64,000 bases of DNA from Patescibacteria group bacterium (lineage in GTDB: Bacteria; Patescibacteriota; Patescibacteriia; Patescibacteriales; UBA12465): NCBI GenBank assembly GCA_041664445.1, contig JBAYKT010000002.1, forward strand, positions 8,629-72,628, written 5' to 3'. The notes under the pieces were generated by a model. That model searched no databases, was not told the DNA's origin, and saw nothing but the letters and a program-made list of their open reading frames with translations. A program made the position numbers and the translations under genes. This document shows positions 762 to 63,917 of the stretch, in pieces (position 1 is the stretch's first letter; each line of letters opens with the position of its first letter).

Positions 762-817
762 TATTCAGCACAAACTTTAAAAGTCTTACGGTCCTTATAC
801 TCGCTGGCTTTCCCAGG

Positions 818-3068: not shown

Positions 3069-3097
3069 AGGAATTGAGATTGAAAATATGTGATTAA

Positions 3098-3556
3098 TTA
3101 TTTTTTTTCTTTAATGAGCTTATTAAGCTCCTTGCGAAATTCCTGAGCATCCTTGAAGGATTCATAAACCGAGGCATAACGAATATAGGCAACCGGGTCT
3201 AATTTTTTTAAATTTTTCATGACTGCTTGGCCAATCTGTTTGGAGGTTATTTCTGTCTTTTTCAATCTTTGCAAATCGCGTTCAGTTGAATGAACAAGTT
3301 TCTTAAACAAGTCTTCGGTAATCGGCCGCTTCTCACAAGATTTTTTTAAACCGCCAACGAGCTTCTCTCGACTATAGGATTCTCGCCGTCCGTCCCGCTT
3401 AACAATTACTAAATCCAAAAGTTCTATTTCTTCATAAGTGGAAAAACGGAAAGAACATTTTAAACATTCGCGCCGACGACGGATAGATAATCCATCGGAA
3501 GCCACCCGAGAATCTACTACCTTAGTATCAGGGTAGTAACAAATTGGGCATTTCAT
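3098..3556 (-). CDS. nrdR: Transcriptional repressor NrdR (Zn-ribbon plus ATP-cone)
   Basis: MKCPICYYPDTKVVDSR...CLKC Zn ribbon followed by an ATP-cone, 152 aa, immediately upstream of nrdD. Confidence 0.9.
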   Translation of the reverse strand: MKCPICYYPDTKVVDSRVASDGLSIRRRRECLKCSFRFSTYEEIELLDLVIVKRDGRRESYSREKLVGGLKKSCEKRPITEDLFKKLVHSTERDLQRLKKTEITSKQIGQAVMKNLKKLDPVAYIRYASVYESFKDAQEFRKELNKLIKEKK

Positions 3557-9241: not shown

Positions 9242-10006
9242 CTAGAATAGCCCTAAATACCAGTTAATTATTCCTTGTCCATAAATTAAGGTAATAATAG
9301 CCCCAATCACTAAAAAGGGACCGAGCGCAATCTTAGATTTCCAGCCCTTGTTCTTAGAAACTAGCAAAATAATGCTAATAATTGAACCAATAAAATAAGC
9401 GCTAATTAGTGATAGTCCTAAATGACCCAGAACCGGAAAAGTAATTCCTAAAAGCAGGCCCAACCAAATATCGCCCTCGCCGATACCTCGTTTCTTGGTC
9501 AAAATATATTGCGCCCAAAAAAAGCCGCCGCCAACTAAGGCAGAAATCAGAAGAGCGAACACCGAAAATCCTAAAAATAAATTAAGAATCGCCACCAACG
9601 CAATGGTCGGCCAAACAACCATCATCGGCACCATTTGCCAGCGGAAATCATAAATGAAAATAATCATGAGACTAGAAATCAGAAACCAATCGCGAGCCAA
9701 CAACAGAGAAAAATTAGCAGAATCAGCGGCGTGCAAAAAAGTTAACACAAACAATAAAGAAGTAAAAAATTCCACTAGCGGATACTGCCAAGAAATCTTT
9801 AAATGGCAATGACGGCAGCGCCCGCGTAACCGCAAAAAGCTAAGCAAGGGGATGTTGTCATACCAAGCAATTGTCTGAGAACATGAGGGACAATAAGAGC
9901 GCCCTAAAATTGTATCTTCTTTATACAAACGCCAGACTAAACAGTTTAAAAAACTGCCAATCACTAAACCGATTGCGGCGGCGAAAACGCCAAAAATAAA
10001 TTCCAT
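9242..10006 (-). CDS. pilD: Prepilin peptidase (A24 family, PilD/TadV-like) with an N-terminal Cys4 Zn motif
   Basis: CPSCSQTIAWYDNIPLLSFLRLRGRCRHC motif, polytopic membrane protein, conserved Asp-containing loops. Confidence 0.85.
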   Translation of the reverse strand: MEFIFGVFAAAIGLVIGSFLNCLVWRLYKEDTILGRSYCPSCSQTIAWYDNIPLLSFLRLRGRCRHCHLKISWQYPLVEFFTSLLFVLTFLHAADSANFSLLLARDWFLISSLMIIFIYDFRWQMVPMMVVWPTIALVAILNLFLGFSVFALLISALVGGGFFWAQYILTKKRGIGEGDIWLGLLLGITFPVLGHLGLSLISAYFIGSIISIILLVSKNKGWKSKIALGPFLVIGAIITLIYGQGIINWYLGLF

Positions 10007-12367: not shown

Positions 12368-12383
12368 GGTTTTATTATAGCAA

Positions 12384-12416
12384 TAAAAAAGGGGCTTGAA
12401 AATCAAGCCCCTTTAA
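12384..12416 (-). terminator. Strong intrinsic terminator after secF: perfect stem ggggcttga/tcaagcccc followed by T7 on the minus strand
   Basis: 9-bp GC-rich perfect stem with a 3-nt loop. The minus-strand read gives tttttttattgc after the stem. Confidence 0.6.
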
Positions 12417-21913: not shown

Positions 21914-21948
21914 AATATTATCATTTAGTATTATTCCCTAAATTTATA

Positions 21949-27663: not shown

Positions 27664-27680
27664 AAATTTATGTTTTTAGA

Positions 27681-27711
27681 TAACCAAAAATGGCAATTAT
27701 TGACAATTGCC
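27681..27711 (-). terminator. Hairpin ggcaatt-attgac-aattgcc overlapping the stop of the 887-aa gene, followed on the minus strand by atttttggtt. Possible weak terminator or attenuator between the two giant genes.
   Basis: 7-bp stem with a short U-run. Weaker than the other terminators in the window. Confidence 0.35.
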
Positions 27712-30360
27712 GTTAACTAGCGAACTGGTGGCCACTCCGAAACAACATGAAGGACTCTGAGGAGTCGCCGCACAGCCCGGACCGGAGCTGGGTTTAAAGC
27801 AATTTTGAAAAATATTTTTTACACCAGAACCAATTTGCGAGTCATAAGTTATTGACTCTAAAAATGGAGAATGCTTTATTTTTGCAATAGTAATATCCGC
27901 AATTCCGTCCAATGGCAAGGAATCGACATCGGAATTATCCAACCAAAATCCCAGCGGTGTTGGCTCTGAACTCTTTAAATTTATAAATCTATGCAAAACC
28001 GGACTAGTTCCACTATCAACTATTTCGCCGCCGGAACGTAAAGTGCTGGACATCATTAAATTATTAAAAGTAATTTCTATCGGATCAGTTGGCGGAATAT
28101 CATTTTGGCCATTAGCAGGATTAATACTGGTAATCTCGGGTGGTGTAGTTTCTATTTTGTCATTTATAAAGAAGGCGTTACGATAGCTATCGCGATTGCT
28201 TCTGTTGCTAGGGAAATTATCGCTGAAAAAGCTAATTGGACCCTCAACAATTGTGTCCCGATTACCATCCAAAGAGTTAAGCGCCGCGTCAATAATACCA
28301 TCTAACTGGAGCGGGTTCGCGCTAGGATAGTTGCGACCGTTAACGTCTTGACAGGAACGATAGCCTAATTGATTTAAGGCGCAGGTTTTGAAAGGGCTAT
28401 AAGCGGCGCAATCAGCGTCACTGGCACAAACTTTCATATTGGCGGCCTTAAGCTCAACCGATAAATTACTATTAGCCGGCAAGCAGTATATTTTTTCACC
28501 GCAACCGTTAATTCCGCACTCATTATCAGAAATAAATTCTACAGTCCTATAGCTACCGCTAACATTAAAGCGTCCACTGACATAATTTCCGCGACAAACA
28601 TAGGCATCACATCGATAAGAGCGGCAATCAGCATTACTGGCGCAAACTGATCCGTCTACTTTACTGGTTGAAGAGGCGTTAACAACTTGGATATAATTAG
28701 CGACTTCAGAGGCAGTCCCGGATAATGTTAGCGGATTCATCGCCTCGTTAAAGTTAACTTTAATTATAGAATTCATTGGTGAGTCTGGACCACCTTTAAC
28801 CTGGCTGGCGAGTTGTCGATCAACCCCGCCCGTAAAGGCGCTGAGACTCAAGGCATTAGTATTACTGGTATTTAAACTTAAATTGTTGCCAGCTGCGCCA
28901 GCAACTTTGGCGGTTAGCAAAACTCGATTACCGGACCGATTAACAATAATAGCCGAGTTGCCACTTAATTGCGCTTGAATATTGGCCGCCTGGATACCGA
29001 TGTCGCAAGTTCCCGGAACAACAATATTATTATTTCCGCCGCTAGTCGCAAAAACATAAACTTCATTGCCGACGCTTAAGGTGTCAGCTAATTTTTCAGG
29101 ACTAATAGTTATCTCCCAAGAATCTCCGGCCGCATGACCAGTAGTTTTAAGACTAAAGTAACCATCAAAAACTACCGTATTTTGACCATCAAAGTCAGAC
29201 ACTCCCAACAAGGCGTTAGTATTACCATTAAATATTTGTGCCTTATCCGGAGTCGCCGCTGGGACAATCACCTTAAACTTGTTAATCAAACCATGATAAT
29301 CAAGCACGACTTCCGCATTAGGCAAAACGCTGATAACACTAGCTGGAGCATAAGTCTGAGGACAACTATTTACAAAAATATCAGCGCTGGCATTTAGAGC
29401 CGGAGTATCGATATTCAATAAATCGCGTTCATTATCCGGACGCGGATAAAGAGAATTAAACATTACTTGGGGTGGCGTTAAATCCAAATTAGTGCTGACT
29501 TCAAATCCCCATTGGAAGCCATTATTGCTACAAGTGCTGAACATGGATGTTCCGTCGTCCTTCTTGAAATCATTAGTTAATTTGATGTCATATTCAGTAT
29601 TGGCACTCTCTGAACCTAAATAACTTAAGGGGGATAACACTAAAGTTAGCTTATCAGCCGAGACGGCCACTGAAACATCAGTTACATTAGTATTTGGAGT
29701 TGGGCAAGAATTAGTACAAGCATCACCCAAACTGCTTTTAAAAATCCGTATAGCCTGAGGGTTAATCAGGGAGCAGGCGGCATTATCGCAAGCGCAGGCC
29801 GCACCGCTAGCATTTACGCACACTGAATCAAGCCCGATAACTTCTTTAAAGCTAATAATAATTGCGGAATTACGAGCGACATTATTCTGGCTATTTTCTG
29901 GGTAAACCATATCAACGGAACAGGCGCCCATTGCCCCAAATCCAGAGTTAGCTAAATTATTGCCGGAGTTCTGAATAGGATTACCTTCAACTCCAGAAAT
30001 TGCTCCCGCTAAGCGTGAGATAATAAAAGTGGTAATTGCCCAAGCAGATAAAGTAACGGCTAAACCGATGGTGGCATTCTTAAGAATTGTTTTTGCCCGG
30101 CTAATCTTATCTTCTTCACCACCCGAAGTCATCCATAAAAATCCAGCGTAGATTATTAAACCTAAAACAATCACCCCCAAGAAACTGAGGATGATTTGAA
30201 TAATACGGCCAACCATCGCACGCGGGTCACCGCCGGCAAGGGCGATAGAATTATTAACGGCGTTAATTCCGAAATCCGCTTGAGCAGACACGAAAGCGAC
30301 CGGCAAAAGAGCGGCGATAGTTACGAAAAGACCGTAAATTATTTTATTTTTTTTCAACAT
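27697..30360 (-). CDS. Giant (887 aa) surface protein, paralog of 21949-27663. It has the same VirB2/TrbC-like N-terminal hairpin and a Cys-rich extracellular region.
   Basis: N-term ...FVSAQADFG|INAVNN...DPRAMVGRIIQIILSFLGVIVLGLIIYAGFLWMTSGGEEDKISRAKTILKNATIGLAVTLSAWAITTFIISRLAGAISGVEG. Many Cys. Confidence 0.8.
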   Translation of the reverse strand: MLKKNKIIYGLFVTIAALLPVAFVSAQADFGINAVNNSIALAGGDPRAMVGRIIQIILSFLGVIVLGLIIYAGFLWMTSGGEEDKISRAKTILKNATIGLAVTLSAWAITTFIISRLAGAISGVEGNPIQNSGNNLANSGFGAMGACSVDMVYPENSQNNVARNSAIIISFKEVIGLDSVCVNASGAACACDNAACSLINPQAIRIFKSSLGDACTNSCPTPNTNVTDVSVAVSADKLTLVLSPLSYLGSESANTEYDIKLTNDFKKDDGTSMFSTCSNNGFQWGFEVSTNLDLTPPQVMFNSLYPRPDNERDLLNIDTPALNASADIFVNSCPQTYAPASVISVLPNAEVVLDYHGLINKFKVIVPAATPDKAQIFNGNTNALLGVSDFDGQNTVVFDGYFSLKTTGHAAGDSWEITISPEKLADTLSVGNEVYVFATSGGNNNIVVPGTCDIGIQAANIQAQLSGNSAIIVNRSGNRVLLTAKVAGAAGNNLSLNTSNTNALSLSAFTGGVDRQLASQVKGGPDSPMNSIIKVNFNEAMNPLTLSGTASEVANYIQVVNASSTSKVDGSVCASNADCRSYRCDAYVCRGNYVSGRFNVSGSYRTVEFISDNECGINGCGEKIYCLPANSNLSVELKAANMKVCASDADCAAYSPFKTCALNQLGYRSCQDVNGRNYPSANPLQLDGIIDAALNSLDGNRDTIVEGPISFFSDNFPSNRSNRDSYRNAFFINDKIETTPPEITSINPANGQNDIPPTDPIEITFNNLMMSSTLRSGGEIVDSGTSPVLHRFINLKSSEPTPLGFWLDNSDVDSLPLDGIADITIAKIKHSPFLESITYDSQIGSGVKNIFQNCFKPSSGPGCAATPQSPSCCFGVATSSLVNGNCQ
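29975..30360 (-). repeat. Copy 2 of the roughly 380-bp repeat encoding the shared N-terminal module
   Basis: See copy 1 at 27280-27663. Confidence 0.6.
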
Positions 30361-30453: not shown

Positions 30454-31920
30454 ATGACGATTGAAAGGATTATAAAAAAATTCTCCGACAACAATCCCGG
30501 AACCGACGCCAGTATTCTAGATAAGGCTTTTATTTTTGCCGATAATGCTCATGCTGGACAACTTAGAAAAAATGGCGAACCATATATCCAACACCCCTTG
30601 CATACCGCCTATATTCTGGCCGAGATCCGGGCTGATTTGCCGACAGTGGTCGCCGGGATTCTTCATGATGTCCCCGAAGATACGGAACGCACGATTGAAG
30701 AAATCGAACAAGAATTCGGTTCTGAAATTGCGTCCTTGGTAAGCGGCGTTACTAAACTTAGTAAAATAAAATACCGCGGCATTGAGAGATATCGAGAAAA
30801 TTTAAAAAAAATGTTTTTGGCGATGACTAGCGACCTCCGCGTTATTTTTATTAAGTTTTGCGACCGCTTAAATAATCTCCGAACTCTAGAAAGTCTGCCG
30901 CCGGAAAAAAAACGACGCATCGCTGAAGAAACTTTAGAGATATATGCTCCGATTGCCGGTCTTTTAGGAATCGGTCGCTTAAAATGGCAGATGGAAGATT
31001 TGTGCTTTAAATATCTATATCCAGAAAAATTTAATGAACTGGAATATGAATATGAAGTTGAAAAAAAAGTTGAACGTCAACGTTTTTTCCATAAAGTAAA
31101 AAGTATTCTGGTTCCTAAACTAGAAGAAGCAAACATTAAAAATTACGAAATTGAAGCTCGCTTCAAACATCTCTATAGTATCTATAAAAAGATGCAAGAA
31201 AAAGACCGTAAATTCAATGAGATTTATGATGTTTTTGCTTTACGCTTAATAGTGCCGACCATTGATGATTGCTATAAAGTTCTGGGAGTAATCCATACCC
31301 TTTGGCGCCCCAAAACCAATCGCTTTAAGGATTATATTGCCGTCCCTAAACCTAACGGCTACCGTTCCCTGCACACCACTATTTTTGGCCCCGAAGGCAA
31401 ACCAACTGAATTTCAAATTCGCACTCGGGAAATGCACGAAGAATCAATTTACGGGATTGCCGCCCACTGGTATTACAAGTCTAAAAGTGAACGTAATTAT
31501 CAACAACCGAAATGGGTTAATGAAATTATTGATATTCAAAAAGAAATCACCACCACTTCCGAATTCGTTAAAAATATCAAAATGGATATTTTTCGCGACC
31601 GTATTTTTGTCTTTTCACCACGCGGCGATGTCTTTGAACTTCCAGAAAAAGCTACCCCGATTGATTTTGCGTATGCCGTTCACGGCAATATCGGCAACAA
31701 AGCTGCCGGCGTCATTATTAATGATAAGCTTGGCAAATTAGACCAAGAACTAAAAAATGGCGACCTAGTAGAAATTATCGTCGAAAAAAACCGCCAATAT
31801 CCTAACAAAGACTGGCTAAAATTTGTAAAAACCAAGCGCGCGCGCGACCAAATAAAAGCTCATGCCAAAAAATCAACTCTAGACAAAATGAAGCGCTTTA
31901 TTCCGGGTATCAATAAATAA
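30454..31920 (+). CDS. Short bifunctional RelA/SpoT-family (p)ppGpp synthetase/hydrolase with HD, synthetase and TGS domains and no ACT domain
   Basis: HD motif HPLHTAYILAEIR...GILHDVPED, synthetase core DVFALRLIV...YRSLHTTI, TGS RIFVFSPRGDVFELPEKATPIDFAYAVH. 488 aa. Confidence 0.85.
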   Translation: MTIERIIKKFSDNNPGTDASILDKAFIFADNAHAGQLRKNGEPYIQHPLHTAYILAEIRADLPTVVAGILHDVPEDTERTIEEIEQEFGSEIASLVSGVTKLSKIKYRGIERYRENLKKMFLAMTSDLRVIFIKFCDRLNNLRTLESLPPEKKRRIAEETLEIYAPIAGLLGIGRLKWQMEDLCFKYLYPEKFNELEYEYEVEKKVERQRFFHKVKSILVPKLEEANIKNYEIEARFKHLYSIYKKMQEKDRKFNEIYDVFALRLIVPTIDDCYKVLGVIHTLWRPKTNRFKDYIAVPKPNGYRSLHTTIFGPEGKPTEFQIRTREMHEESIYGIAAHWYYKSKSERNYQQPKWVNEIIDIQKEITTTSEFVKNIKMDIFRDRIFVFSPRGDVFELPEKATPIDFAYAVHGNIGNKAAGVIINDKLGKLDQELKNGDLVEIIVEKNRQYPNKDWLKFVKTKRARDQIKAHAKKSTLDKMKRFIPGINK

Positions 31921-37529: not shown

Positions 37530-40500
37530 CTAAACCTGTCTAAATTCGCAAATCGTTCTAAAATCACAAAATTCACACATCGGTGACGGCGATGGCGTAA
37601 AATCACGCCTTTTAATAGCGGCGATTTCGGCCATCACGCCCGTTTTTAACTTTTCAATATCTTTCTCGGTGGCATTAAAAGAAAACTTTTCACCGCTTTC
37701 CAAATAATAATAACTTAGCTGACTCACTTTTTCGCCTAAAAATTCTTCCAAAAATATTTTGTATAAAATAAGCTGGCGCTTATCTTTAAATTCCAATTTG
37801 GTTTTGCTTTTGCCGGTCTTATAATCAATAATTTCCAAGCTGCCATCGGCTAAGCGGTCGACTCTATCCATCGTCCCCTTGATAACATCGCTGCCAATTT
37901 TGAAAGAAAACTTTTTTTCCAAAAAGATGATTTCAGACGGCGGATTATTTTGATAATCAGTCAAAAAACGATTTAAAGCCAAGCGCCCTTTCTCCAGATA
38001 AGCGGCGCGCTCCTCCTTATCTTTGTAGCCGTCCGGCTGCCAAAATTCTTGATAAAGCGTAGCTAATCTTTTAGCAGTTATTAGGTCTTCTATTTTTAGC
38101 GGTACTTTTTCATCAGCAAATAAACTGGCTTGGATTTTTTTAGTCTCGCTTAAAATCGGCAGTAAAAAATTATATAAAGTATTATGCAGGACACGTCCGA
38201 AAATAAGCGATGCCTTGTCGGAAGCGGCAGGAATTTTTAAAATGAAGGCAAATTTATACTGCAAGGGGCAAGTGGCAAAGGCCGCTAACTGCGAAAAAGA
38301 AAATTTTTCCGGCAACGGGTACAGCTCTTCCGGATTCTTTGACCTGAGCGGTGCCGGTTCTTTAACGTTCAATAAATGAATATCTTTTAGGAACTCATTA
38401 CGGCGGCTTAACTGCACTTGATCCGAAATTTCCGGTTCAATTCCCATCTCCAAAATAAAACGAGATGGCTTCTTTTCTCTAAGCAAACCATAATCTTTGG
38501 CGCTAGTCAGATAAAGTTCTTCCTTGGCTCTAGTGGCGGCGACGTAAAACAAGCGGCGTTCTTCCTCTAAATGTGCTTCCGGCCCCGGAACATTTTTTTC
38601 TTTGATAAGCGCTTCTGGAATAGAAATTTTCTCGCTGCGTGAAATGGTGGGGAATTTTTTATCAACTAAATTAACAATAAAGACATATTTAAATTCCAAA
38701 CCTTTAGCGCCGTGGACGGTCATAATTTTCACCGTTTCATTATCCGCAAAATCTAGTTTTAAAGAACCGGTTTCTCCTGCTTCCAATTCTAAATTAATGA
38801 CTTCCAAAAAATCTTTTAATTTTACGTCGGCATTATTATCTTCCACAGCTTTCATTTTTTGATAAAGCTGATTAAGGTAAGAAAATAATTCCAAATCTCT
38901 GTCTTTGTCCATCTTTTCCAGCAAACCGGAATCATAAGCAAAATGCAAAAATATTTTTGTCGGCTTATTATTGGCCACTAAAACTGAATGCGTCTCCACT
39001 AACTTCAACAATTTTTTAATATTGGAAACACTGGTCGAGCTAATGCCTTGAATCAAATCAATATTTTTTAGAGCTTCATAAAGCGACCAAACTTTGCGGG
39101 CAGCAATTTTATTAATCGCGACCAAATCAAGATGCGCCACTTTGAAAGCCTCCATATTCAAAACGCGAAACAACGCCGCTGATTCATGATAATTATCCAA
39201 TAAACGGAAGTAAGCAAGAATATCCAGCACGAGCGGCTTATAATACAGACCGCGCCAAGACATAAACTGGTTGGGAATATCCAAGCGTCCCAACTCTTTA
39301 ACATAGGCATCAGCCGTATCATTGGCTCTGACTAAAATTGCAAAATCAAGCCAGCTAATCTCTTCACCTTGAGCAATTTTTTCTTCATAAATATTTTTAA
39401 TGCAGTTAGCAACAAAAGAAACTTCTTCGTCCTGCGTATCAAAATTAAAAAACTTAAGGGCCGGCTCATTTTTTTTGCCTTTGTTAACCGCTCCTTTAGC
39501 CAAAAGGTGTTTGTCTATTTTTAATTTTACCTCCAAACGATTGGGGTCATTATGACTGATAAACTTATGCGCGCGGTCAAGAATTTCCTGGCGTGAACGA
39601 TAGTTCTCGGTTAAGACTATTTCTTGAGCCTGTGGGTAATCTTCTTTAAACTGCATGATATTGGAAATAGAGGCGCCACGAAATTTATAAATCGCCTGAT
39701 CATCGTCGCCAACTACCAATAGATTATTATGCGGGGCGGCCAAAAGACGGACTAATTTATATTGCGCCAGATTGGTATCTTGAAATTCATCAACCATAAT
39801 ATACTTAAATTTCTGACGATAGTATTTTAACAAGTTGGGGCGTTCGATAAATAATTTAATGGCATAAAAAATCAAAGCGCCGAAATCAAGATAATTGTTT
39901 TCTAATAGTAATTGGTTATAGACATGATAAGCATCAGCTAATTCTTTAAGTCGGGTTATTTCCAATTCTTCACCTGATTCATCGTCACTATCCGCCTCTA
40001 TAATTTTAACTTTAGTTTTTTTAGACAATTTTTTCCCGCTTAAACACTCATCCTGATTAGACTCCAGGTCCTCAACATATTTCAGATATTCTTCCGGGCT
40101 GATATTTTCATCTTTCAACCGGGAAAAATGCTTTAAAAGCTCCGAGATAAACTTGGTCGGATTACCGAGAGGACGATAATAATCCAACTGGAATCGGGAT
40201 AAATTTTTCTTAATTAAAACCCACTGGTCAGTTTCATTCAAAAGTTTGAAGCCGGGATTCAAGCCGATTTCTAAGGCGTGATCGCGCAAAATTCGTTCAC
40301 AAAAGCCATGAAAAGTATTAATCCATAAATCGACATAACCATAAGGCATAATTTTATCAGCCCGTTCTTCCATTTCTCCGGCCGCTTTTTCGGTAAAGGT
40401 CAACAATAAAATTTCATCGGTAGAAATTTTCCGGTTAATAATTAAATGGGCCAAGCGATTAATTAAAACCGTAGTTTTTCCAGTACCGGCGCCGGCCACA

Positions 40501-40574
40501 ATCAAAAGTGGGCCATCTTCATGCAAAACCGCCGCTTGCTGCGCTTGATTCAATTTTTTAAAATCTGCCAACAT
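37530..40574 (-). CDS. UvrD/PcrA-family SF1 helicase fused to a C-terminal PD-(D/E)xK nuclease with a Cas4/AddB-like 4-Cys (Fe-S) motif. AddA-like helicase-nuclease.
   Basis: N-terminal LNQAQQAAVL...AGAGTGKTT Walker A. C-terminal ATCPLQYKF...IIDYKTGKS...MCEFCDFRTIC. 1014 aa. Confidence 0.8.
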   Translation of the reverse strand: MLADFKKLNQAQQAAVLHEDGPLLIVAGAGTGKTTVLINRLAHLIINRKISTDEILLLTFTEKAAGEMEERADKIMPYGYVDLWINTFHGFCERILRDHALEIGLNPGFKLLNETDQWVLIKKNLSRFQLDYYRPLGNPTKFISELLKHFSRLKDENISPEEYLKYVEDLESNQDECLSGKKLSKKTKVKIIEADSDDESGEELEITRLKELADAYHVYNQLLLENNYLDFGALIFYAIKLFIERPNLLKYYRQKFKYIMVDEFQDTNLAQYKLVRLLAAPHNNLLVVGDDDQAIYKFRGASISNIMQFKEDYPQAQEIVLTENYRSRQEILDRAHKFISHNDPNRLEVKLKIDKHLLAKGAVNKGKKNEPALKFFNFDTQDEEVSFVANCIKNIYEEKIAQGEEISWLDFAILVRANDTADAYVKELGRLDIPNQFMSWRGLYYKPLVLDILAYFRLLDNYHESAALFRVLNMEAFKVAHLDLVAINKIAARKVWSLYEALKNIDLIQGISSTSVSNIKKLLKLVETHSVLVANNKPTKIFLHFAYDSGLLEKMDKDRDLELFSYLNQLYQKMKAVEDNNADVKLKDFLEVINLELEAGETGSLKLDFADNETVKIMTVHGAKGLEFKYVFIVNLVDKKFPTISRSEKISIPEALIKEKNVPGPEAHLEEERRLFYVAATRAKEELYLTSAKDYGLLREKKPSRFILEMGIEPEISDQVQLSRRNEFLKDIHLLNVKEPAPLRSKNPEELYPLPEKFSFSQLAAFATCPLQYKFAFILKIPAASDKASLIFGRVLHNTLYNFLLPILSETKKIQASLFADEKVPLKIEDLITAKRLATLYQEFWQPDGYKDKEERAAYLEKGRLALNRFLTDYQNNPPSEIIFLEKKFSFKIGSDVIKGTMDRVDRLADGSLEIIDYKTGKSKTKLEFKDKRQLILYKIFLEEFLGEKVSQLSYYYLESGEKFSFNATEKDIEKLKTGVMAEIAAIKRRDFTPSPSPMCEFCDFRTICEFRQV

Positions 40575-43810: not shown

Positions 43811-44092
43811 ATGTCTGCCAAATATCTAATAAAACCTGGTGTCTGGTTGCTAAAAGATGAAGCCAGTACCAAGTTTCATCTTTCTCAAGACGATTATTTT
43901 GGTACCATTGCCACAATTTTGAGTCTTTGGCGCCAAAATATTGAAAAAAATCCGGACCTTATTAATCCGGATTTTTATCAAACTTTAAATGAAGTAGAAA
44001 AAGATTTAATCTGGCTACAAAAAAACTATCAAATCAAGCCAAGGATTAAAAAGAAAAATAAAATCCCAAAGGGTAAAGAAATTAGCCAATGA
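43811..44092 (+). CDS. Hypothetical 93-aa protein, translationally coupled to radC
   Basis: The ATG lies 1 nt after the radC stop. No recognisable motifs. Confidence 0.4.
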   Translation: MSAKYLIKPGVWLLKDEASTKFHLSQDDYFGTIATILSLWRQNIEKNPDLINPDFYQTLNEVEKDLIWLQKNYQIKPRIKKKNKIPKGKEISQ

Positions 44093-45315
44093 TCGAGCAT
44101 CATCATAATCACCAGTGCTACAATAATCGAAAAGGCAAAATTTTGACGGCGCGGACTAAGCGCCAAAAAAATTAAAAATAAAATTACTGCCAAAAAAGCG
44201 AAGACGCCATTTTCCGCAAAAACCAAGAGAAAGGCATTATGAACTGGTTGATAATAATTAAAATTACTGACTGACGAATTTTTTTCTAAATATTTTACAT
44301 AATTAGCATTACCCACTCCAAACCAGGGGTGGTTTTTTATTATTTTCCCGGACTGAACAGCATAATCTTCACGCTCTGAAATAGATATTTGTTCCAAGCG
44401 TGAAGTGGCCGTAAAACGAGTTAAAGCCAACTCACGATAAGGCAAAGCGGCAATAACCAAGAGTGCCACGGAAAAGAAAATTAATGCTAAAAATCGTTTT
44501 GCTACCCAACGATCTTCCCGCTTATAAATAACCCAGGCTAAAATCAACATGCCGACGGCATAGGCCAACCAAGCGGCCCGCGAGAAAGAGAAAAACATGG
44601 CAATCAGCGCAAAAAAATAACTGAAAAACAACATAATCAAGCCCCAAATCTGAATATTGGAATTAATTATTTTTTTACGGGCCAATAAATAAGCTGATAA
44701 AATCAAAGAAATGGCTAGCACCCCGCCTAAAACATTAGGGTGATCAAGGCCGCCATAAGCTCGCAGCCAACGACCGGAAGCTGTTTCAATAACCGCGGTT
44801 CCAACTACTTCCGGATCATGAGCGGCCAAACCTAAATATTTGAAGGCAAAAGATTTTTGACTGAGAAATTGATAAATCCCTAAAGAGGCTTGAAAAAAAG
44901 TGCTGGTCAAAAAAACATAGATAATTCTCGTTCTATTTAAACAGCTATCTTCATAAGCGGCGCGATTAATTCCTTCTCTAACCAGATAAAATAGGCCTAA
45001 ACCTCCCAAAAATAATAAGTAATGAAAAGTGGCTAAAAGTTTATCGGGCGCATAGAAAAAAGAAACTACCATCACAATTTCCAGTACCCCCAAAAAATAC
45101 CAAAGCAGAGGTGTTTTACGACCAGAATCTCTAGTCCAGATTTTATATATAAAAAAACAGATTAAGGCTAGTAGCAAAACTAAATGACTGACATACAAAC
45201 TAATGTCGTTAAAATTATTAAGCGCCGGCCGAAGAATTAGCTTGGTTTGCCAAGGCAAAATAAAAACAAAAACTAACAAAAAAAATTCAGTTAATCTTTT
45301 GAAGAAGTTCATCAT
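44029..45315 (-). CDS. Wzy_C/O-antigen-ligase-family polytopic membrane protein. Second copy in the window; this one lacks TPR.
   Basis: About 12 TM helices with a periplasmic loop containing an RAAW-type motif. The track start at 45339 is TTG; the double ATG at 45310-45315 (MMNFFKRL) is more likely. Confidence 0.6.
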   Translation of the reverse strand: MMNFFKRLTEFFLLVFVFILPWQTKLILRPALNNFNDISLYVSHLVLLLALICFFIYKIWTRDSGRKTPLLWYFLGVLEIVMVVSFFYAPDKLLATFHYLLFLGGLGLFYLVREGINRAAYEDSCLNRTRIIYVFLTSTFFQASLGIYQFLSQKSFAFKYLGLAAHDPEVVGTAVIETASGRWLRAYGGLDHPNVLGGVLAISLILSAYLLARKKIINSNIQIWGLIMLFFSYFFALIAMFFSFSRAAWLAYAVGMLILAWVIYKREDRWVAKRFLALIFFSVALLVIAALPYRELALTRFTATSRLEQISISEREDYAVQSGKIIKNHPWFGVGNANYVKYLEKNSSVSNFNYYQPVHNAFLLVFAENGVFAFLAVILFLIFLALSPRRQNFAFSIIVALVIMMMLDHWLISLPFGILFFFLILGLI

Positions 45316-46168
45316 ACTTAGACTTAAATTTTTCAGCAAATAGACGCCGTCTATCGCCGAGATATAATTTTAAAACACTATCGGAAATAACCACCCCGTC
45401 TGAATTATTCACAGCTCTTTTTAAATCTGGAGACATAATTCTTAATTGCCAACTTTTAGCAATTTTTTCCAAAATATCCAGCCAAGAAAACCTAGCGGCG
45501 GCGGAGTCAATAATATTTTCAGTACTTAATTGGTTCGCTGTTAAAAACCGCTGATAAAAATTACGGGAATTATAAATTGGTAATAAGCCGCGCAACCAAT
45601 AATAAAAATAAGGATCGTCATGACCTAAAGCTAAATCGCGAATGTCTAAATGCTCCTCGGAAATATAAAAACTTAAACAAATCTTATCACGCTTATTGGC
45701 CGTAGTCGGACGACTATTCAGCAACTTAGCCAGCCCTGCACAGAATAAACGACTTAACCAAATCCGCCTGGCGCTCGTGATAATAAAAAAATCGATATCA
45801 CCTTCTTGGCGCAAATTATGATCGCCAATAAAATTAGCAACCGCGATAGTTTTAACAAAAGGCAAAAGCGCAAAAGCGCGCGCAAATCTTCGAGCGATTT
45901 TTACTTTATGACAAGAATAATTATATCGTATTTTTCTGATTTCGACGATATTTTCTCGGCCGTTTAGAAAATAAAAGCCATTTTTTTGACTGATAATTTC
46001 CGAGGCGGCATTTTCTAAAGTTAACTTAAGAGCCGCCAACGAGCCGCGCCGCCCTAAATAATGCCAAATTTCATAAGCCGTCAACGGGAAATCGAACAAA
46101 TCCAAAAAAACTAGGGGCTTTAAAACGTCCCGTACGGATATTTCTTGATTGTCGGAAACGCTAAACAT
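45287..46168 (-). CDS. Hypothetical protein with a Pol-beta-like nucleotidyltransferase-type motif (GDHNLRQEGDIDFFII)
   Basis: G[DS]x(7-9)DxD pattern. 293 aa. No other clear homology from sequence alone. Confidence 0.4.
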   Translation of the reverse strand: MFSVSDNQEISVRDVLKPLVFLDLFDFPLTAYEIWHYLGRRGSLAALKLTLENAASEIISQKNGFYFLNGRENIVEIRKIRYNYSCHKVKIARRFARAFALLPFVKTIAVANFIGDHNLRQEGDIDFFIITSARRIWLSRLFCAGLAKLLNSRPTTANKRDKICLSFYISEEHLDIRDLALGHDDPYFYYWLRGLLPIYNSRNFYQRFLTANQLSTENIIDSAAARFSWLDILEKIAKSWQLRIMSPDLKRAVNNSDGVVISDSVLKLYLGDRRRLFAEKFKSKYDELLQKIN

Positions 46169-58734: not shown

Positions 58735-58764
58735 TTGGTAATAATCTTAGAATTATGTTATAAT
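58735..58764 (+). promoter_or_regulatory. Sigma70-like promoter with an extended -10 (TTGGTA-18-TGtTATAAT) for the plus-strand operon 58840-63917
   Basis: -35 at 58735-58740 and TGn-TATAAT at 58756-58764, about 75 nt upstream of the first ATG. Confidence 0.45.
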
Positions 58765-58839: not shown

Positions 58840-59820
58840 ATGTTTTCTTATCGCTCAATCTTAAAACAATCTTGGAACATCGCCTGGAAGAACAAATATC
58901 TCTGGCTATTCGGACTTTTTGCTTCCATCGCGGCCGCCAGCGGTTCTTTTGAATATCAAGTCTTGGCCAATGGCTTACAATCAAGTGCTTTAGAAAATTC
59001 TTATTCCCATATTAACGGTTTAGTGCTTGTTCTAAGCGCCTTTGGCTCTTTCTGCGCCGGTTTTTGGAATTTATTTTCCTACGATATTTTTACAATCATT
59101 AACACTTTAACGGTTTTAATTATTACTCTGACTTTAATTGTGACTTTTGTCTGGCTATCCATCTCCTCGCAGGCCGCCCTGGTAGTCAGCGCTAAAAAAT
59201 TAATAGTGGCCAAGAAAAAAACACCAATTTTAAATATTAGAGAAAATCTAGCTAAAGGGCATCTTCATTTCTGGCCAGTGCTCGGACTAAACATTCTAAT
59301 TAAAGTTTTGGTTGGTCTAGCCCTCTTTATAATGTCCGTTCCTTTATTATTTTTAGCCGTGAATGGTTCCGCCTATTTAGCCGGAGTTTATGTTTTATCT
59401 TTTATAATTTTTACTCCGATTGCGGTTTCTCTGTCCTTAATAATTAAATACGCAATTGCTTACAACGTTTTAAATGATGAATCTTTCTGCGCATCTTTAA
59501 AAAAATCAATTAAACTATTTGGCAATAATTGGCTAATGAGCGTCGAAATGGGAATTATTCTCTTTATTATCAGCTTCCTGGCCGGTTTTCTATTGCTGGT
59601 TATTATTTCAATTTTTATTTTCCCATACCTCGTTTTTGCCGCCAACTACGGTTTAGCCTGGTTACTGGTTTTCTTGATGTTTATCGTTCTCGCTCTGATT
59701 CTATTTACCGGAGCGATTCTGACAACTTTTCAAGTATCCGCCTGGACTGATTTATTTTTAGAGCTGGAGGAAGGCCGCGGCGAAGCTAAACTGGAAAGAA
59801 TGTTCAAGAAAAAAGCTTAA
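58840..59820 (+). CDS. Polytopic integral membrane protein (about 9 TM), hypothetical. First gene of the PilB operon.
   Basis: Hydrophobic throughout. 4-nt gap to the pilB fusion. No homology recognised. Confidence 0.6.
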   Translation: MFSYRSILKQSWNIAWKNKYLWLFGLFASIAAASGSFEYQVLANGLQSSALENSYSHINGLVLVLSAFGSFCAGFWNLFSYDIFTIINTLTVLIITLTLIVTFVWLSISSQAALVVSAKKLIVAKKKTPILNIRENLAKGHLHFWPVLGLNILIKVLVGLALFIMSVPLLFLAVNGSAYLAGVYVLSFIIFTPIAVSLSLIIKYAIAYNVLNDESFCASLKKSIKLFGNNWLMSVEMGIILFIISFLAGFLLLVIISIFIFPYLVFAANYGLAWLLVFLMFIVLALILFTGAILTTFQVSAWTDLFLELEEGRGEAKLERMFKKKA

Positions 59821-59823
59821 ACT

Positions 59824-62800
59824 ATGGGAAAGGTGGACTCAATCGAAAATTTATTAAATCCGACAGGCGACGAAGAAAGCGTCGCCGGTCTTTTTGCGAG
59901 GAAACAGGAAGAAATAAAACTTAAAGAACTAGAACATAAAACGCAAAGAGACGCCGAAGAGCTTGGTCTGGATTATGTTAATCTCTATGGCTTCCCGATT
60001 AGTCCTGAGGCCTTAGTCTTAATTCAAGAAGAACGCGCCCAAGAACTAAAGGCGATTTGTTTTTTTTATGATGGTAAAAATATCAGAGTCGGTTGTTTAA
60101 ACCCTAGCGCCGAAGTTTTGGAAGAGATGAAACGATTAAGCGAGCAGTATTTTGCTGATGCTAAACTATATCTTGTTTCTTCCAATAGCTTAAAGGCCGC
60201 TTTAGAGGCCTACCGCTCGCTGCCAAAAGTTAAAAAATATGAAAGCGGCGTGGAAATTAGCTCTGAGCAACTAGAAAAATTTAAAAATGACATTTCCAGT
60301 TATAAAAATCTAAACGATAAAATAAATGACGTTAATATTACCGACGTCATTACTTTAATTTTAGCGACCGCCATTAAAGTCGGCGCCAGCGATGTTCATA
60401 TTGAAGCTGAGGATACTGGGGTTGTTATTCGGGTAAGATTGGATGGTGTTTTGCAAGAGGCGGCCGTTATCAGCCGCGAAAAATGGCATAAGATTATTTC
60501 CCGTTTAAAAATTCTGGCGCGCGTTAAAATTAATATTGAAAATAAACCGCAAGACGGACGTTATACAATTTATTTAGAGAAACGCCGAGTTGATGTTCGC
60601 TGCTCTTTCTTGCCGACGGCTTATGGAGAGAGCGTGGTTATGCGCCTTTTAGATTCCGCCATGACGTCTTTGGACATTGAAAACCTGGGTGTCAGACCGG
60701 AAGTCTTGCCGATTTTAAGAAGAGAAATTGCTAAACCAAATGGACTAATTTTAACCACCGGACCAACCGGCAGCGGTAAAACCACAACCCTATACGCTGT
60801 TATCAATAAACTTAATCAATCAGGCACCAAAATAATTACCTTGGAAGATCCAATTGAATACCAGCTATCGGGTATCAACCAAAGCCAAGTGGACAGCAAG
60901 CATGGTTTCAGTTTTTCTGAGGGTTTAAGGTCTATCTTACGCCAAGACCCTAATGTAGTAATGGTCGGGGAAATTAGAGATTTAGAAACCGCGGAAATTT
61001 CCATTCAAGCCTCTCTTACTGGTCATATTGTTTTATCAACTCTGCATACTAACGACGCCGCCGGAGTAATCCCCCGCTTAATTGATATCGGCGTAAAACC
61101 CTATTTTCTAGCACCTTCAATTAACGCCGTCATCGGCCAACGTTTAGTTAGGCGCCTATGTGTTCATTGCCGCCAAGAAAAAACTCTCAGCGCTGATGAA
61201 GAAGAATTGGTTCATAAAATATTAGCAGTCATTTCTCCCAAAACTGGTATTAATATCCCTTCTAAACTACCAAATGTTTTTCAAGCTGGTGCCGGTTGCG
61301 AACAATGCAACTTTACCGGCTATAAAGGCCGTTCCGGTATTTTTGAAATTTTTACACTGGACGACAAAATTCGCCAATTAACAGTAGAGCAAGCACCTTC
61401 TTTTAAAATTCTTCAGCAAGCGATTGAAAATGGCATGATTACCATGCTTCAAGACGGAGTTTTAAAAGCTTTGAATGGCGAAACTAGTTTAGAAGAAGTT
61501 TATCGCGTTATTGGTAATTTTGATTATGTTAACGAACTTTACGATATTGTAATTTCACAAACCATCGGGCGCGGCGTTAAAATAAGCGCCCAGCAAGTAG
61601 AAGACGCCAAGGAATTAAGTAAAAATATTTTAGAAATTAGTGAAAAAGCTAAAGAAGTGCCAACGTCTGATTTAATCAGACTGACAATGACCCTGGCCGT
61701 CTTACGCGAGGCGGGCGATGTTCATATCGAACCGACGGCCGATGAAGTTAAGATTCGTTTCCGCATTGATGGCATCTTGCATGATATTTTTTCCTTGCCA
61801 AAAACCAGTTATTTGCCATTACTATCGGAAGTAAAAATTCTAGCCGGCACTCCGACTAATATTAAGCGTGCCACTTTTGACGGCCGCTTCAGTGTTTATT
61901 TACCCGATCATAAAATTGATTGTCGTCTATCAATTATTTCCGGCGGTTACGGCGAAACTATCGTCGTGCGCTTATTAACAACTGAGGCCGCTAACTTGGA
62001 TATGGTAAAATTGGGAATTACCGGGACAACTTTAACTTCTTTAGAAGCGGCGATGAAAAAAAATAAAGGTATTATTATCACCACCGGACCAACCGGTAGC
62101 GGTAAGACCACCACCTTATACAGCGCCCTCAACCAACTCAACAAACCGGATGTTAAAATTATTACGGTTGAAGATCCAATTGAATACCAATTACCGGGCG
62201 TAATGCAAACCCAAATTGATGAAGCGAGCGGCTATACTTTTGTCTCGGCCATGAAATCCTTATTGCGCCAAAATCCTAATATCATGATGATTGGCGAAAT
62301 CCGAGACTCGGAAACAGCCAAGATTTCTATTGAAGCGGCAATGACCGGCCATTTAGTTTTATCAACTATCCATGCCAACAGCGCCGCCGGGGCCATCTCC
62401 CGCTTTGTCGGACTCGGCGTTGAACGCCAAGCGCTAGCCAACTCCATAGAATATACCATCGGTCAGCGTCTAGCTCGCCGAATCTGTCCTTACTGCAAAC
62501 AAGAAGCTATCGTCAGCTCGGAAGATTTAGAAAAAGTAAAAAATATTTTAAGCAGTATTAATAATCCAGCAGTTACGATTCCCGAAAAATTAACTTTTTA
62601 TAAAGGCACCGGCTGTGAAAAATGCGGTCAAATCGGTTATAAAGGAAGAATCGGCCTTTACGAAGCGATAACCATGACCCCCGGCATTCAAACTATAATT
62701 CAAAATGAAAGAGTCACTGACTTTGAAATTGAACAAGAAGCTATTAAAAACGGCATGGTAACCATGCTTCAGGATGGCGTCCTAAAAGCGCTAAACGGAG

Positions 62801-62835
62801 AAACAACTCTAGAAGAAGTATTCCGCGTAATTTAA
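59824..62835 (+). CDS. pilB: Tandem-fused double type IV pilus assembly ATPase (PilB/GspE family) with architecture N1-N2-CTD-N2-CTD and two complete ATPase cores
   Basis: Two Walker A (LILTTGPTGSGKTTTLYA and IIITTGPTGSGKTTTLYS). Two Asp/Glu boxes (ITLEDPIEYQL and ITVEDPIEYQL). Two Walker B (VMVGEIRD and MMIGEIRD). Two His boxes (TGHIVLSTLHT and TGHLVLSTIHA). Two tetra-Cys motifs. The C-terminal end sequence MxTMLQDGVLKALNGETxLEEVxRVI is repeated. 1003 aa. Confidence 0.85.
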   Translation: MGKVDSIENLLNPTGDEESVAGLFARKQEEIKLKELEHKTQRDAEELGLDYVNLYGFPISPEALVLIQEERAQELKAICFFYDGKNIRVGCLNPSAEVLEEMKRLSEQYFADAKLYLVSSNSLKAALEAYRSLPKVKKYESGVEISSEQLEKFKNDISSYKNLNDKINDVNITDVITLILATAIKVGASDVHIEAEDTGVVIRVRLDGVLQEAAVISREKWHKIISRLKILARVKINIENKPQDGRYTIYLEKRRVDVRCSFLPTAYGESVVMRLLDSAMTSLDIENLGVRPEVLPILRREIAKPNGLILTTGPTGSGKTTTLYAVINKLNQSGTKIITLEDPIEYQLSGINQSQVDSKHGFSFSEGLRSILRQDPNVVMVGEIRDLETAEISIQASLTGHIVLSTLHTNDAAGVIPRLIDIGVKPYFLAPSINAVIGQRLVRRLCVHCRQEKTLSADEEELVHKILAVISPKTGINIPSKLPNVFQAGAGCEQCNFTGYKGRSGIFEIFTLDDKIRQLTVEQAPSFKILQQAIENGMITMLQDGVLKALNGETSLEEVYRVIGNFDYVNELYDIVISQTIGRGVKISAQQVEDAKELSKNILEISEKAKEVPTSDLIRLTMTLAVLREAGDVHIEPTADEVKIRFRIDGILHDIFSLPKTSYLPLLSEVKILAGTPTNIKRATFDGRFSVYLPDHKIDCRLSIISGGYGETIVVRLLTTEAANLDMVKLGITGTTLTSLEAAMKKNKGIIITTGPTGSGKTTTLYSALNQLNKPDVKIITVEDPIEYQLPGVMQTQIDEASGYTFVSAMKSLLRQNPNIMMIGEIRDSETAKISIEAAMTGHLVLSTIHANSAAGAISRFVGLGVERQALANSIEYTIGQRLARRICPYCKQEAIVSSEDLEKVKNILSSINNPAVTIPEKLTFYKGTGCEKCGQIGYKGRIGLYEAITMTPGIQTIIQNERVTDFEIEQEAIKNGMVTMLQDGVLKALNGETTLEEVFRVI

Positions 62836-62839
62836 ATAT

Positions 62840-63415
62840 ATGATAAATAAAAAATTCTTAGACGATTTAAAAAAAGACTATCAAGCTAACGAAAGTGAAC
62901 GCCGACAAATTATCAGCGCCTCTAACGGCATTCTTTTTGAAGCTAAAAAAACTATTTTTTCCTTACAGCGCCAGGATTTTAAAACTGCCGAAACTAAAAT
63001 AACCGAAATGGAAAAAGCGCTGGCCAACTTAGAAAAACGCTTCGGGGCTGATAGACTAAAAAAAGAAGGCGCTTACAAAGCAGCCGCTGAAGAATATTTG
63101 GAAGGCAAAACTTTTTATTTAATAATCAAAAAGAAAGAGATTAATTCCAGCGCTGGCCTAAGTCTTGATTATGAATCATATTTAGGCGGTATTTGCGATT
63201 TAATCGGCGAACTAGTGCGTTATGCTACTAATCAAGCCGCTAAAGGCAAATTTGCCGAAGTCGCAAAAATAAAAAAAGCCGCCGAAGATATTATGGCGCA
63301 GTTGATTGATTTTGATATGACTGGATATCTGAGAACTAAATATGATCAAGCGCGCGGACACTTAAGAAAATTGGAACAAATGGCTTACGAGATTAAAATG
63401 CGAATCGGCAAATAA
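62840..63415 (+). CDS. Translin/TRAX-family protein (C3PO-like) retaining both TRAX-type catalytic motifs
   Basis: YLGGICDLIGELVRYA compared with human translin/TRAX YLLGVADLTGELMRLA. C-terminal LRTKYDQARGHLRKLEQMAYEIKMRIG compared with LRKRYDGLKYDVKKVEEVVYDLSIRG. An ExxE motif (EEYLE) plus DxxxE (DLIGE). 191 aa. Confidence 0.7.
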   Translation: MINKKFLDDLKKDYQANESERRQIISASNGILFEAKKTIFSLQRQDFKTAETKITEMEKALANLEKRFGADRLKKEGAYKAAAEEYLEGKTFYLIIKKKEINSSAGLSLDYESYLGGICDLIGELVRYATNQAAKGKFAEVAKIKKAAEDIMAQLIDFDMTGYLRTKYDQARGHLRKLEQMAYEIKMRIGK

Positions 63416-63419
63416 AAAT

Positions 63420-63917
63420 ATGTTAGTGGCGATTATTTCTGATATCCATGACAACCTTTTAAATTTGGCTAAATGCCTGGACTGGTGCAAAAATCATAAA
63501 ATAGAAAAAATGATTTGTTGCGGCGATGTCTGTGATGCCGATACCTTAAAATTTTTGGCAAAAAACTTTAAGGGGAAAATTTCTTTAGTCGAGGGAAACG
63601 GTGAAACTTTTATTGAATCGGATTTAAAAACCTTAAAAAATATTAAATACCACGGTTTGGCCGGAGTTGAAAAGATAGGCGGACTAAATCTGGGATTTTG
63701 CCATCAAAATAAAGACATCAACCAAGTGACTGAACTTAGCTCGCAAACTTTAGACTTTATTTTTCTTGGCCACAGCCATAAACCTTGGCTGGAAAAGAAG
63801 GAGCAAACTTTTATCGCTAACCCCGGAAATGTTTCTGGCACTTTTTATCAAGCCACCTTCGCCGTTTTGAACACGGACAATAAAAAGCTTGATTTGAAAA
63901 TATTGGCGCATCTTTAA
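63420..63917 (+). CDS. YfcE/MJ0936-type metallophosphoesterase (phosphodiesterase)
   Basis: MLVAIISDIHDN, GDVCD, GNGE and GHSHKPW metal-binding motifs. 165 aa. Confidence 0.8.
   Translation: MLVAIISDIHDNLLNLAKCLDWCKNHKIEKMICCGDVCDADTLKFLAKNFKGKISLVEGNGETFIESDLKTLKNIKYHGLAGVEKIGGLNLGFCHQNKDINQVTELSSQTLDFIFLGHSHKPWLEKKEQTFIANPGNVSGTFYQATFAVLNTDNKKLDLKILAHL

Follow-up and report, generated by a model that had tools for sequence, protein, structure and literature searches.

An ATPase gene with two complete motor cores

The window analysed here is a stretch of 64,000 nucleotides (nt) from contig JBAYKT010000002.1 of a Patescibacteria group bacterium (assembly GCA_041664445.1). Close to its 3′ end it carries a gene for a PilB/GspE-family ATPase in which two motor cores, each consisting of an N2 domain and a C-terminal ATPase domain (CTD), are joined in one polypeptide of 1003 amino acids (aa). 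The gene and its parts are as follows, in window coordinates:

59824..62835, + strand: tandem PilB/GspE-family ATPase gene, 1003 aa, comprising N1, core A, linker and core B (open reading frame list, Pfam, homologues)
59962..60219, + strand: N1 domain (MshEN/T2SSE_N), aa 47-132 (Pfam PF05157, 28 bits against a cutoff of 23.1)
60331..61512, + strand: core A (N2 and C-terminal ATPase domain), aa 170-563
60760-60783, 60967-60981 and 61159-61308, + strand: core A motifs Walker A, GEIRD and tetra-Cys, respectively
61513..61653, + strand: junction, aa 564-610, a conserved helix followed by a copy of the N1-N2 linker
61654..62832, + strand: core B (second N2 and ATPase domain), aa 611-1003
62086-62109, 62293-62307 and 62485-62625, + strand: core B motifs Walker A, GEIRD and tetra-Cys, respectively

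The open reading frame (ORF) runs from ATG to stop, and its translation contains no internal stop. Pfam finds two full-length stretches of T2SSE (PF00437), with a total of 752 bits against a gathering cutoff of 24.9, while MshEN occurs as a single N-terminal copy; in front of the second core, only the last helix of N1 is duplicated according to Pfam and hhalign. It is therefore confirmed that the gene encodes a covalent tandem PilB with the layout N1(MshEN)-N2-CTD-N2-CTD, in agreement with the initial annotation, which had described two complete cores in one chain and a second half devoid of N1.

Both halves were also said to retain every catalytic and zinc motif and to share the same C-terminal tail, and this is what the translation and the alignment show. 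The Walker A sequence GPTGSGKT is found at aa 313 and 755, Walker B (GEIRD) at aa 382 and 824, the His box (TGH) at aa 399 and 841, and the CxxC pairs of the tetra-Cys motif at aa 446/492 in core A and 888/931 in core B; the Asp box is likewise present in both cores. In an alignment of 101 sequences, C446, C449, C492, C495, C888, C891, C931 and C934 are invariant, as are most residues of the Walker A, Asp box, Walker B and His box motifs. Both halves end in the common tail ...NGET(S/T)LEEV(Y/F)RVI.

An AlphaFold2 (AF2) model of the monomer, computed with the family alignment, has a mean predicted local distance difference test score (pLDDT) of 84.8, with the individual domains predicted confidently. 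The best Foldseek targets are Geobacter metallireducens PilB (5tsh) and Thermus thermophilus PilF (5oiu), at about 40-44% identity and a target-normalised TM-score of up to 0.93, values for which the match table does not state which of the two cores was aligned. The best solved relatives are PilB and GspE chains, and no solved chain or Protein Data Bank (PDB) fold match covered more than one core, either in the sequence search of solved structures or in Foldseek.

The junction contains a helix at aa 568-580 in the AF2 model and carries the family-wide consensus RVxGxxxYxxELYxxxxSQTLxRGxKI. Profile-profile comparison with hhalign detects homology between aa 128-180 and aa 571-622 (E = 2.7e-6), which identifies the junction helix as a duplicated last helix of N1. 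From these alignments, the repeat unit measures about 440 residues, with aa 124/128-563 corresponding to aa 564/571-1003.

Comparison of the two halves

In a BLASTP comparison, aa 142-563 and aa 583-1003 share 47% identity over 423 aa (E = 2e-135), and the cores alone are 48.6% identical, which is lower than the roughly 55% estimated in the initial annotation. At the DNA level just two short patches of the halves can be aligned, with 70-75% identity. Because the DNA similarity is confined to these patches, the fusion is neither recent nor an assembly duplication.

To describe selection on the gene, the ratio of nonsynonymous to synonymous substitution rates (dN/dS) was calculated by the Nei-Gojobori method for 104 orthologue pairs, for which dS is near saturation. 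The two cores have values of 0.038 (A) and 0.046 (B), N1 has 0.077 and the junction 0.095, and for the same pairs the proportion of nonsynonymous differences (pN) is 0.08-0.09 compared with 0.70 for synonymous differences (pS). The low dN/dS and the large gap between pN and pS indicate that both cores and the junction are kept by purifying selection, which is strong for the cores. The extent of invariance is similar in the two cores, with 120 of 394 columns invariant in core A and 111 of 393 in core B among 81 orthologues.

For a residue-level comparison, paired columns of the two halves were evaluated in 101 double-core sequences, counting those in which one half or both reached at least 90% conservation. 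The residue is identical in both halves in 78 of the 98 conserved paired columns, and a single one (D375/N817) is conserved yet different. Twelve positions, including R227, K235, N237, Q243 and P264, are conserved in half A only, and seven, including G675, I704, G707, G708 and Y709, in half B only; these half-specific positions are located mostly within the N2 domains, around the arginine-finger loops. All 13 Patescibacterial cluster representatives carry the Walker A, Asp box, GE(I/V)R(D/S/N), TGH..H and Arg-loop motifs in each half; one of them, P0129, has a core B without the tetra-Cys motif. Judged from these residues, the catalytic sites of A and B have not specialised, and the divergence concerns mainly the N2 domains. 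The suggestion of the initial annotation that the fusion might allow the two sites to specialise is thus not borne out, neither by the paired columns nor by the dN/dS of the cores.

A degenerate, non-catalytic core B was also considered, as a strict Walker A pattern missed core B in several relatives. The alignment shows that these carry conservative variants, GP(T/S)(G/S)(A/S/C)GKTT, in which the lysine is retained, and the idea was rejected. This lysine is lost only in the first core of the non-Patescibacterial protein P0134.

Distribution of the double-core gene

NCBI, JGI and ENA each have an entry for the identical protein, encoded on a 181-kb contig. When the best 120 homologous clusters (at 90% identity) of the query were considered, they showed 72-100% identity and 100% coverage; nearly all measure 1003-1007 aa and one 1027 aa, and their entries, from Patescibacteria or Candidatus Falkowbacteria, bear the name "GspE/PulE family protein". 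A second search, which started from the 44%-identical protein P0125, yielded 115 new proteins, of which 114 contain two cores and one contains three, with source names Candidatus Moranbacteria, Parcubacteria group, Paceibacterota and Minisyncoccia. The best 120 matches of each search are double-core proteins of 964-1031 aa except for this one triple-core protein, and one further cluster is named Paceibacterota. Altogether, at least 235 protein clusters at 90% identity possess the double-core design, across Falkowbacteria, Moranbacteria, Parcubacteria/Paceibacterota and Minisyncoccia. Since both searches returned double-core proteins almost exclusively, this architecture is the normal state of the gene across a wide part of the Patescibacteria.

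A scan of GTDB with one genome per species detected 263 stretches encoding a relative, the best 80 of which were analysed. In these loci, the match extends from query aa 1-6 to aa 1002-1003 at 63-99% identity, and an ORF of more than 950 aa spans both cores in all 80. The closed chromosomes CP066698.1 and OW818634.1 are among the genomes carrying the full-length gene. In a representative library of 1.84 billion sequences at 50% identity, about 14 double-core proteins (P0121-P0134; 978-1047 aa; 37-62% identical) stand beside 15,879 T2SSE relatives with E < 1e-30; the double-core representatives at this level are few, yet their clusters are populous.

These data bear directly on the trivial explanation, in which a sequencing or assembly error (a lost stop codon or a frameshift) joined two neighbouring pilB paralogues, or the region is an assembly duplication. 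A stop or frameshift near 61480-61560 had been named as one observation that would overturn the fusion; this segment is in frame throughout and contains no long homopolymer. Furthermore, the same frame, length and junction motif recur in independent NCBI, JGI, ENA and Logan assemblies, including closed chromosomes, the junction itself is under purifying selection, and the halves are too dissimilar for a recent copy at 47% identity. Conservation, synteny and selection together rule out such an artefact; no evidence in its favour was found, and we assign it a negligible probability. The view of the initial annotation that the fusion is old is supported by the patchy DNA similarity, the recurrence in at least 80 GTDB species and the purifying selection.

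Several of the contigs (L005, L062 and many third-party annotation (TPA) loci among L008-L082) are titled "uncultured Gammaproteobacteria", "Planctomycetota" or "Saccharimonadales". These titles are probably placeholder names or reflect mis-binned contigs, and not a wider taxonomic range.

A full-text literature search with varied terms found no published description of a tandem PilB. A 2024 review of PilB does not contain the words tandem, fused or duplicat (PMC11656802), a survey of the type IV filament superfamily treats separate paralogues only (for example PilB/PilT/PilU), and a census of archaeal type IV pili does not mention an ATPase tandem. The protein sits in public databases without comment and appears to be undescribed. 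The initial annotation had treated the fusion as unusual, whereas it is lineage-wide among the Patescibacterial entries in the databases; none of these entries amounts to a described double PilB.

Origin of the duplication

Among the relatives, P0142 is a single-core PilB of 560 aa (MshEN and one T2SSE) that occurs on 21 contigs (L088:8001-9683 and 20 others) in the context TsaE(-), DHH(+), PilB(+). Its 3′ side shows a GC-rich hairpin followed by a T-run, terminator-like by eye, and no remnant of a second core was found downstream of the gene. P0142 is the single-core orthologue of the tandem family, and the double-core protein P0122 is encoded in the same context (PolA, TsaE, DHH). The three-core protein P0291 (L096:8001-12383; JGI 3300022698; a 77-kb contig) has 1460 aa, with N1 followed by three N2-CTD cores that are mutually 46-59% identical. 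Walker A, GEIRD and TGH are present in each of its cores and the family linker motif at both junctions; the gene lies in a TsaE(-)-DHH(+) context like its single- and double-core relatives, and one contig is on record. Elsewhere in the family, P0131 has PolA and TsaE upstream, and P0125, P0127 and P0128 adjoin RuvB or RuvC. Since single-, double- and triple-core genes are all found at the TsaE-DHH locus, the fusion is best explained as an internal duplication within an orphan PilB orthologue group.

A neighbour-joining (NJ) tree groups the main family's B cores together, with a bootstrap value of 41. By comparison, the two cores of the same protein are sisters in P0127 (57% identical), P0131 (74%) and P0134, with bootstrap values of 91, 100 and 100, respectively, which indicates independent duplications or intragenic gene conversion in these proteins. 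The joining of two different paralogues was considered as well; it is disfavoured by the single-core orthologue at the same locus and by the repeat boundaries, with the deep nodes of the NJ tree being weak. P0183 (558 aa, 62% identical to the first half of P0128) might be a fission product; its location at the very end of a 2.6-kb contig, however, makes it uninformative.

P0134 (L094:8001-11144, GCA_964384625.1; also L095) stands apart. This protein of 1047 aa contains a partial T2SSF domain (PilC-type) at aa 118-203 ahead of two T2SSE cores, and the Walker A lysine of its first core is lost (GSGTTT). Its neighbourhood is non-Patescibacterial, with extracytoplasmic function (ECF) sigma and anti-sigma factors, a sulfatase and MoxR/BatA. 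P0134 is an independent fusion of a platform protein with a double ATPase.

Relation to known motor ATPases

The tetra-Cys zinc motif in the CTD and the N-terminal T2SSE_N/MshEN domain, which separate extension-type ATPases from PilT, are both present. GspE and PilB models rank first for both halves. Half A scores 479 bits and half B 401 bits against the PilB equivalog TIGR02538 (cutoff 675.65), 490.5 and 421.9 bits against the GspE equivalog TIGR02533 (cutoff 630.25), and 245 and 233 bits against the ComGA equivalog NF041000 (cutoff 300), so that every score stays below its cutoff. Linkage to pilC, pilMNO or pilin genes, as expected for PilB, was not seen within ±10 kb at the loci examined.

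In comparison with PilB of G. metallireducens (5TSH/6OLJ) and Myxococcus xanthus (3JC8) and with PilF of T. thermophilus, the tandem protein shows the same order of N1, N2 and CTD and all motifs, at the identity and TM-score given above. These proteins have one core per chain and form homohexamers, whereas the tandem protein has two cores with a conserved junction and no adjoining pilC; the extra parts of PilF are N-terminal GSPII domains and not a second ATPase core. GspE/EpsE (Vibrio cholerae 1P9R and 4KSR; Vibrio vulnificus 4PHT) shares the same motifs, including the zinc site, and is the closest solved structure by sequence (E = 1.9e-103), with TIGR02533 as the top NCBIfam model. GspE, however, is a single-core protein, the tandem halves remain under its equivalog cutoff, and type II secretion system (T2SS) genes were found neither in the window nor at the examined loci. 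Patescibacteria are not known to possess an outer membrane and hence a T2SS.

The nearest functional analogue of two diverged cores is found in Acinetobacter baylyi, where PilB and TfpB are two diverged extension ATPases that are both needed for one pilus (PMC8213720). Those motors are distinct polypeptides from distinct genes, with proposed roles at different steps, whereas the tandem cores are joined and apparently equivalent in catalysis.

Gene neighbourhood

The genes surrounding the tandem ATPase, together with one distant gene of the window that is relevant to its role, are listed below:

58735..58764, + strand: best promoter-like site (TTGGTA, 18 nt, TATAAT, upstream TG; 10/12 matches)
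58840..59820, + strand: TM326, an all-helical multi-pass membrane protein of 326 aa, ending 3 nt before the ATPase start codon (ORF list)
62840..63415, + strand: Translin-family protein, 191 aa, 4 nt 3′ of the ATPase gene (Pfam PF01997, E = 1.3e-20)
63420..63917, + strand: YfcE-like metallophosphoesterase, 165 aa, closing the conserved block (Pfam PF12850, E = 7.8e-24)
9242..10006, - strand: prepilin peptidase PilD, peptidase A24 (Pfam PF06750, E = 1.2e-30, and PF01478)

The promoter-like site is situated in the divergent intergenic region 5′ of the TM326 gene and, by its position only, is the likely start of the operon; the total of promoter-like sites in the region is not above that of shuffled sequence. 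Across 82 loci, the conserved flanking genes are those for GlyRS, ArgRS, TM326, Translin and the phosphoesterase. The TM326 gene lies directly 5′ of the tandem ATPase on the same strand in all 82, the Translin gene is present in 79, mostly immediately downstream, and the metallophosphoesterase gene in 77. Membrane protein, ATPase, Translin and phosphoesterase thus form a conserved block in the Falkowbacteria-like lineage, and the Translin gene is probably co-transcribed with the ATPase. The Translin family is mainly eukaryotic and archaeal. Relatives of the metallophosphoesterase are labelled "haloacid dehalogenase superfamily protein" by NCBIfam, which looks like a misnomer.

TM326 has 299 homologues, and all source names shown among the 120 listed read "hypothetical protein" from Patescibacteria or Falkowbacteria. 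Its AF2 model reaches a pLDDT of 81.7 and a predicted TM-score (pTM) of 0.76. The protein matches no Pfam or NCBIfam family and has no significant PDB fold match, the best being the choline-transporter-like CTL1 with E = 0.03. It diverges much faster than the ATPase (31-99% versus 63-99% identity) and is absent beside the fused gene in the loci examined from other clades. A role as a PilC-like platform was rejected, as TM326 shows neither T2SSF or another family nor a fold match and is missing beside the fused gene in those clades.

No second T2SSE ORF occurs within ±10 kb in the 82 loci, and no T2SSF, PilM or pilin family was found among the Pfam-annotated neighbours in L001/L002 or in six distant loci. 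At the loci examined, the tandem PilB is therefore an "orphan" motor, away from pilC, pilM and the pilins. The prepilin peptidase gene lies 50 kb from the tandem ATPase gene in the same window, and its presence implies a type IV filament system in this genome. A 1014-aa ORF at 37530-40574 was checked as a possible second tandem ATPase; it encodes an AddA/UvrD-PD-(D/E)XK helicase-nuclease and is followed by RuvB.

The orphan position raises the possibility that the tandem ATPase has a different motor role, acting with its neighbours to take up DNA or handle nucleic acids, for instance through a competence pseudopilus or a different translocation process, while a separate single-core PilB drives the adhesive pili. 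Across clades, the neighbours are often nucleic-acid enzymes, namely Translin with the phosphoesterase in one clade, and DHH phosphoesterase, TsaE, PolA, RuvB, RuvC, YebC and PolX in others. This possibility also draws on the report that competence genes and type IV pili are widespread in bacteria of the candidate phyla radiation (CPR) and act together (PMC10633639), and on the two distinct extension motors of the single A. baylyi pilus. On the other hand, the tiny Patescibacterial genomes are rich in information-processing genes, such that neighbours of this kind are expected by chance, and they vary between clades. The sequence, moreover, is nearest to PilB/GspE, and the ComGA score is lower and under its cutoff. 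Taken together, such a role seems quite unlikely.

Proposed arrangement of the tandem motor

The explanation that we favour, and consider probable with clear reservations, is that the gene encodes a PilB-type extension ATPase of a Falkowbacteria-like Patescibacterium, shaped by an ancient duplication of about 440 residues and assembling as a ring of three chains. Its product would be a functional PilB-type motor with two catalytically competent cores, as the retained residues suggest. The internal duplication, comprising the last N1 helix, linker, N2 and CTD, would have placed two cores behind one N1 domain. Three such chains could then form one planar pseudo-hexameric ring with alternating A and B cores, which would carry three N1 domains instead of six. 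This ring would contain two non-equivalent kinds of N2/CTD interface, one within and one between chains, and the difference between these interfaces may be the reason why the half-specific residues are located mostly in the N2 domains. Because one, two and three all divide six, single-, double- and triple-core genes fit a six-membered ring. The conserved junction suggests a ring of three as well, as does the recurrent duplication or gene conversion to which the sister halves of P0127, P0131 and P0134 point, and a trimer-of-dimers stoichiometry is plausible as a model.

In the C2 states adopted by solved PilB rings, four sites are closed and two are open (PMC11656802). The six sites of the proposed ring may likewise all fire one after another, following the C2-type rotary cycle of these hexamers. 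The initial annotation had linked the fused dimer to the C2 symmetry of the family. While C2 states are indeed used by solved PilB, a trimer of tandem dimers can be C3 but not C2, because position i would face the other core type at i+3. A C2-like cycle in an alternating A/B ring would thus require both kinds of site to pass through every state and to be fully competent, with which the kept catalytic residues and the equal constraint on the cores agree.

Several observations weigh against this explanation. Both halves score under the PilB and GspE equivalog cutoffs, although GspE/PilB models rank first. No pilC, pilM, pilT or pilin gene was found within ±10 kb in the 82 loci, nor any of these pilus genes at the examined loci of distant relatives, and the 64-kb window contains no ORF with a classical prepilin motif. 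A single origin of the main family is weakly indicated, by the NJ node with bootstrap 41 and the shared linker motif. The AF2 monomer has a pTM of only 0.49, with the relative placement of the two cores undefined, and the 47-residue linker would permit stacked rings too.

Stacked rings are in fact the usual arrangement for tandem P-loop ATPases. KaiC, p97, ClpB and EssC usually place their copies in separate rings, while F1-ATPase is an alternating alpha3-beta3 ring in which the alternating non-catalytic subunit has lost catalysis. In all of these, duplicated or paralogous ATPase modules build six-fold assemblies, as those of the tandem PilB may do; the tandem PilB differs from F1 in retaining all catalytic residues in both copies. 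Six chains could accordingly be imagined as a dodecamer in which an A-core hexamer and a B-core ring are stacked in the manner of KaiC, p97/NSF/ClpB or EssC. In that case the platform protein would be engaged by one of the rings, leaving the other as a booster or regulator. The linker, which bears a helix, is long enough for this, AF2 shows no preferred side-by-side packing of the cores, and the triple-core P0291 could equally make three stacked rings. In PilB-type rings, each N2 domain packs against the CTD of the adjacent protomer, with the sites at the interfaces between protomers (PMC11656802), an arrangement into which a side-by-side tandem fits naturally. A "spare" ring, furthermore, often degenerates, whereas the conserved surface and the catalytic residues are the same in both tandem cores, and neither core is under relaxed selection. 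We regard the double ring, the main rival of the planar ring, as unlikely.

Returning to the planar ring of three chains, the platform protein offers a possible partner. PilC/PulF is a predicted trimer with two cytoplasmic domains per chain facing six ATPase protomers (PMC11656802). As proposed for the tandem ATPase, two repeats per chain (here T2SSF domains that arose by internal duplication) in three chains would give a pseudo-sixfold arrangement; PilC/PulF is nevertheless a membrane protein of unrelated fold, and its pairing with the tandem ATPase is a proposal. Each two-core chain might pair one-to-one with one chain of the PilC trimer. It is conceivable, though we hold this only tentatively and lean against it, that the tandem PilB is the sole extension motor, with the three-chain ring docked one-to-one on the PilC trimer in a true three-fold complex. 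Cores A and B would then contact two different cytoplasmic domains of each PilC chain.

Implications for the motor family

PilB/GspE motors power pilus assembly, protein secretion and DNA uptake, and the coordination of the six sites and the coupling between the ring and PilC are still debated on the basis of C2, C3 and C6 structures. A natural covalent dimer, or the rarer trimer, would make it possible to mutate one site in two or in three without engineered linked subunits. If the ring is formed, the covalent linkage would also fix its register relative to PilC, and three N1 domains would suffice. Should the tandem protein be the sole motor, the single-, double- and triple-core genes would represent natural stoichiometry variants (6x1, 3x2 and 2x3), which would limit the symmetry that a rotary mechanism needs. 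The tandem PilB is a lineage-wide peculiarity of the pilus apparatus of Patescibacteria, spanning hundreds of species, and type IV pili are essential in a cultivated Saccharibacterium according to transposon sequencing (PMC10633639). The annotation label "GspE/PulE family protein" hides the doubled architecture. What appears to be new is the tandem-duplicated PilB, within a motor family that is already known; it is not categorically new biology.

Other genes of the window

The prepilin peptidase gene adjoins a gene for a 798-aa protein with Wzy_C (O-antigen ligase) and TPR repeats (10010-12406, - strand), a candidate enzyme for glycosylation of pilins or the cell surface; another Wzy_C protein is encoded at 44029-45339. 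At 18251-30360 (- strand), three consecutive giant ORFs of 1220, 1904 and 887 aa are found. The 1904- and 887-aa ORFs start with an N-terminal T4SS_pilin domain (VirB2/TrbC-like), followed by Ig-like Big_5 and TIG domains, and the 1220-aa ORF has no Pfam match. The segments 26-3556 (- strand) and 30454-31920 (+ strand) encode the housekeeping proteins NrdD, an activase-like radical-SAM protein, NrdR and a RelA/SpoT-type (p)ppGpp enzyme.

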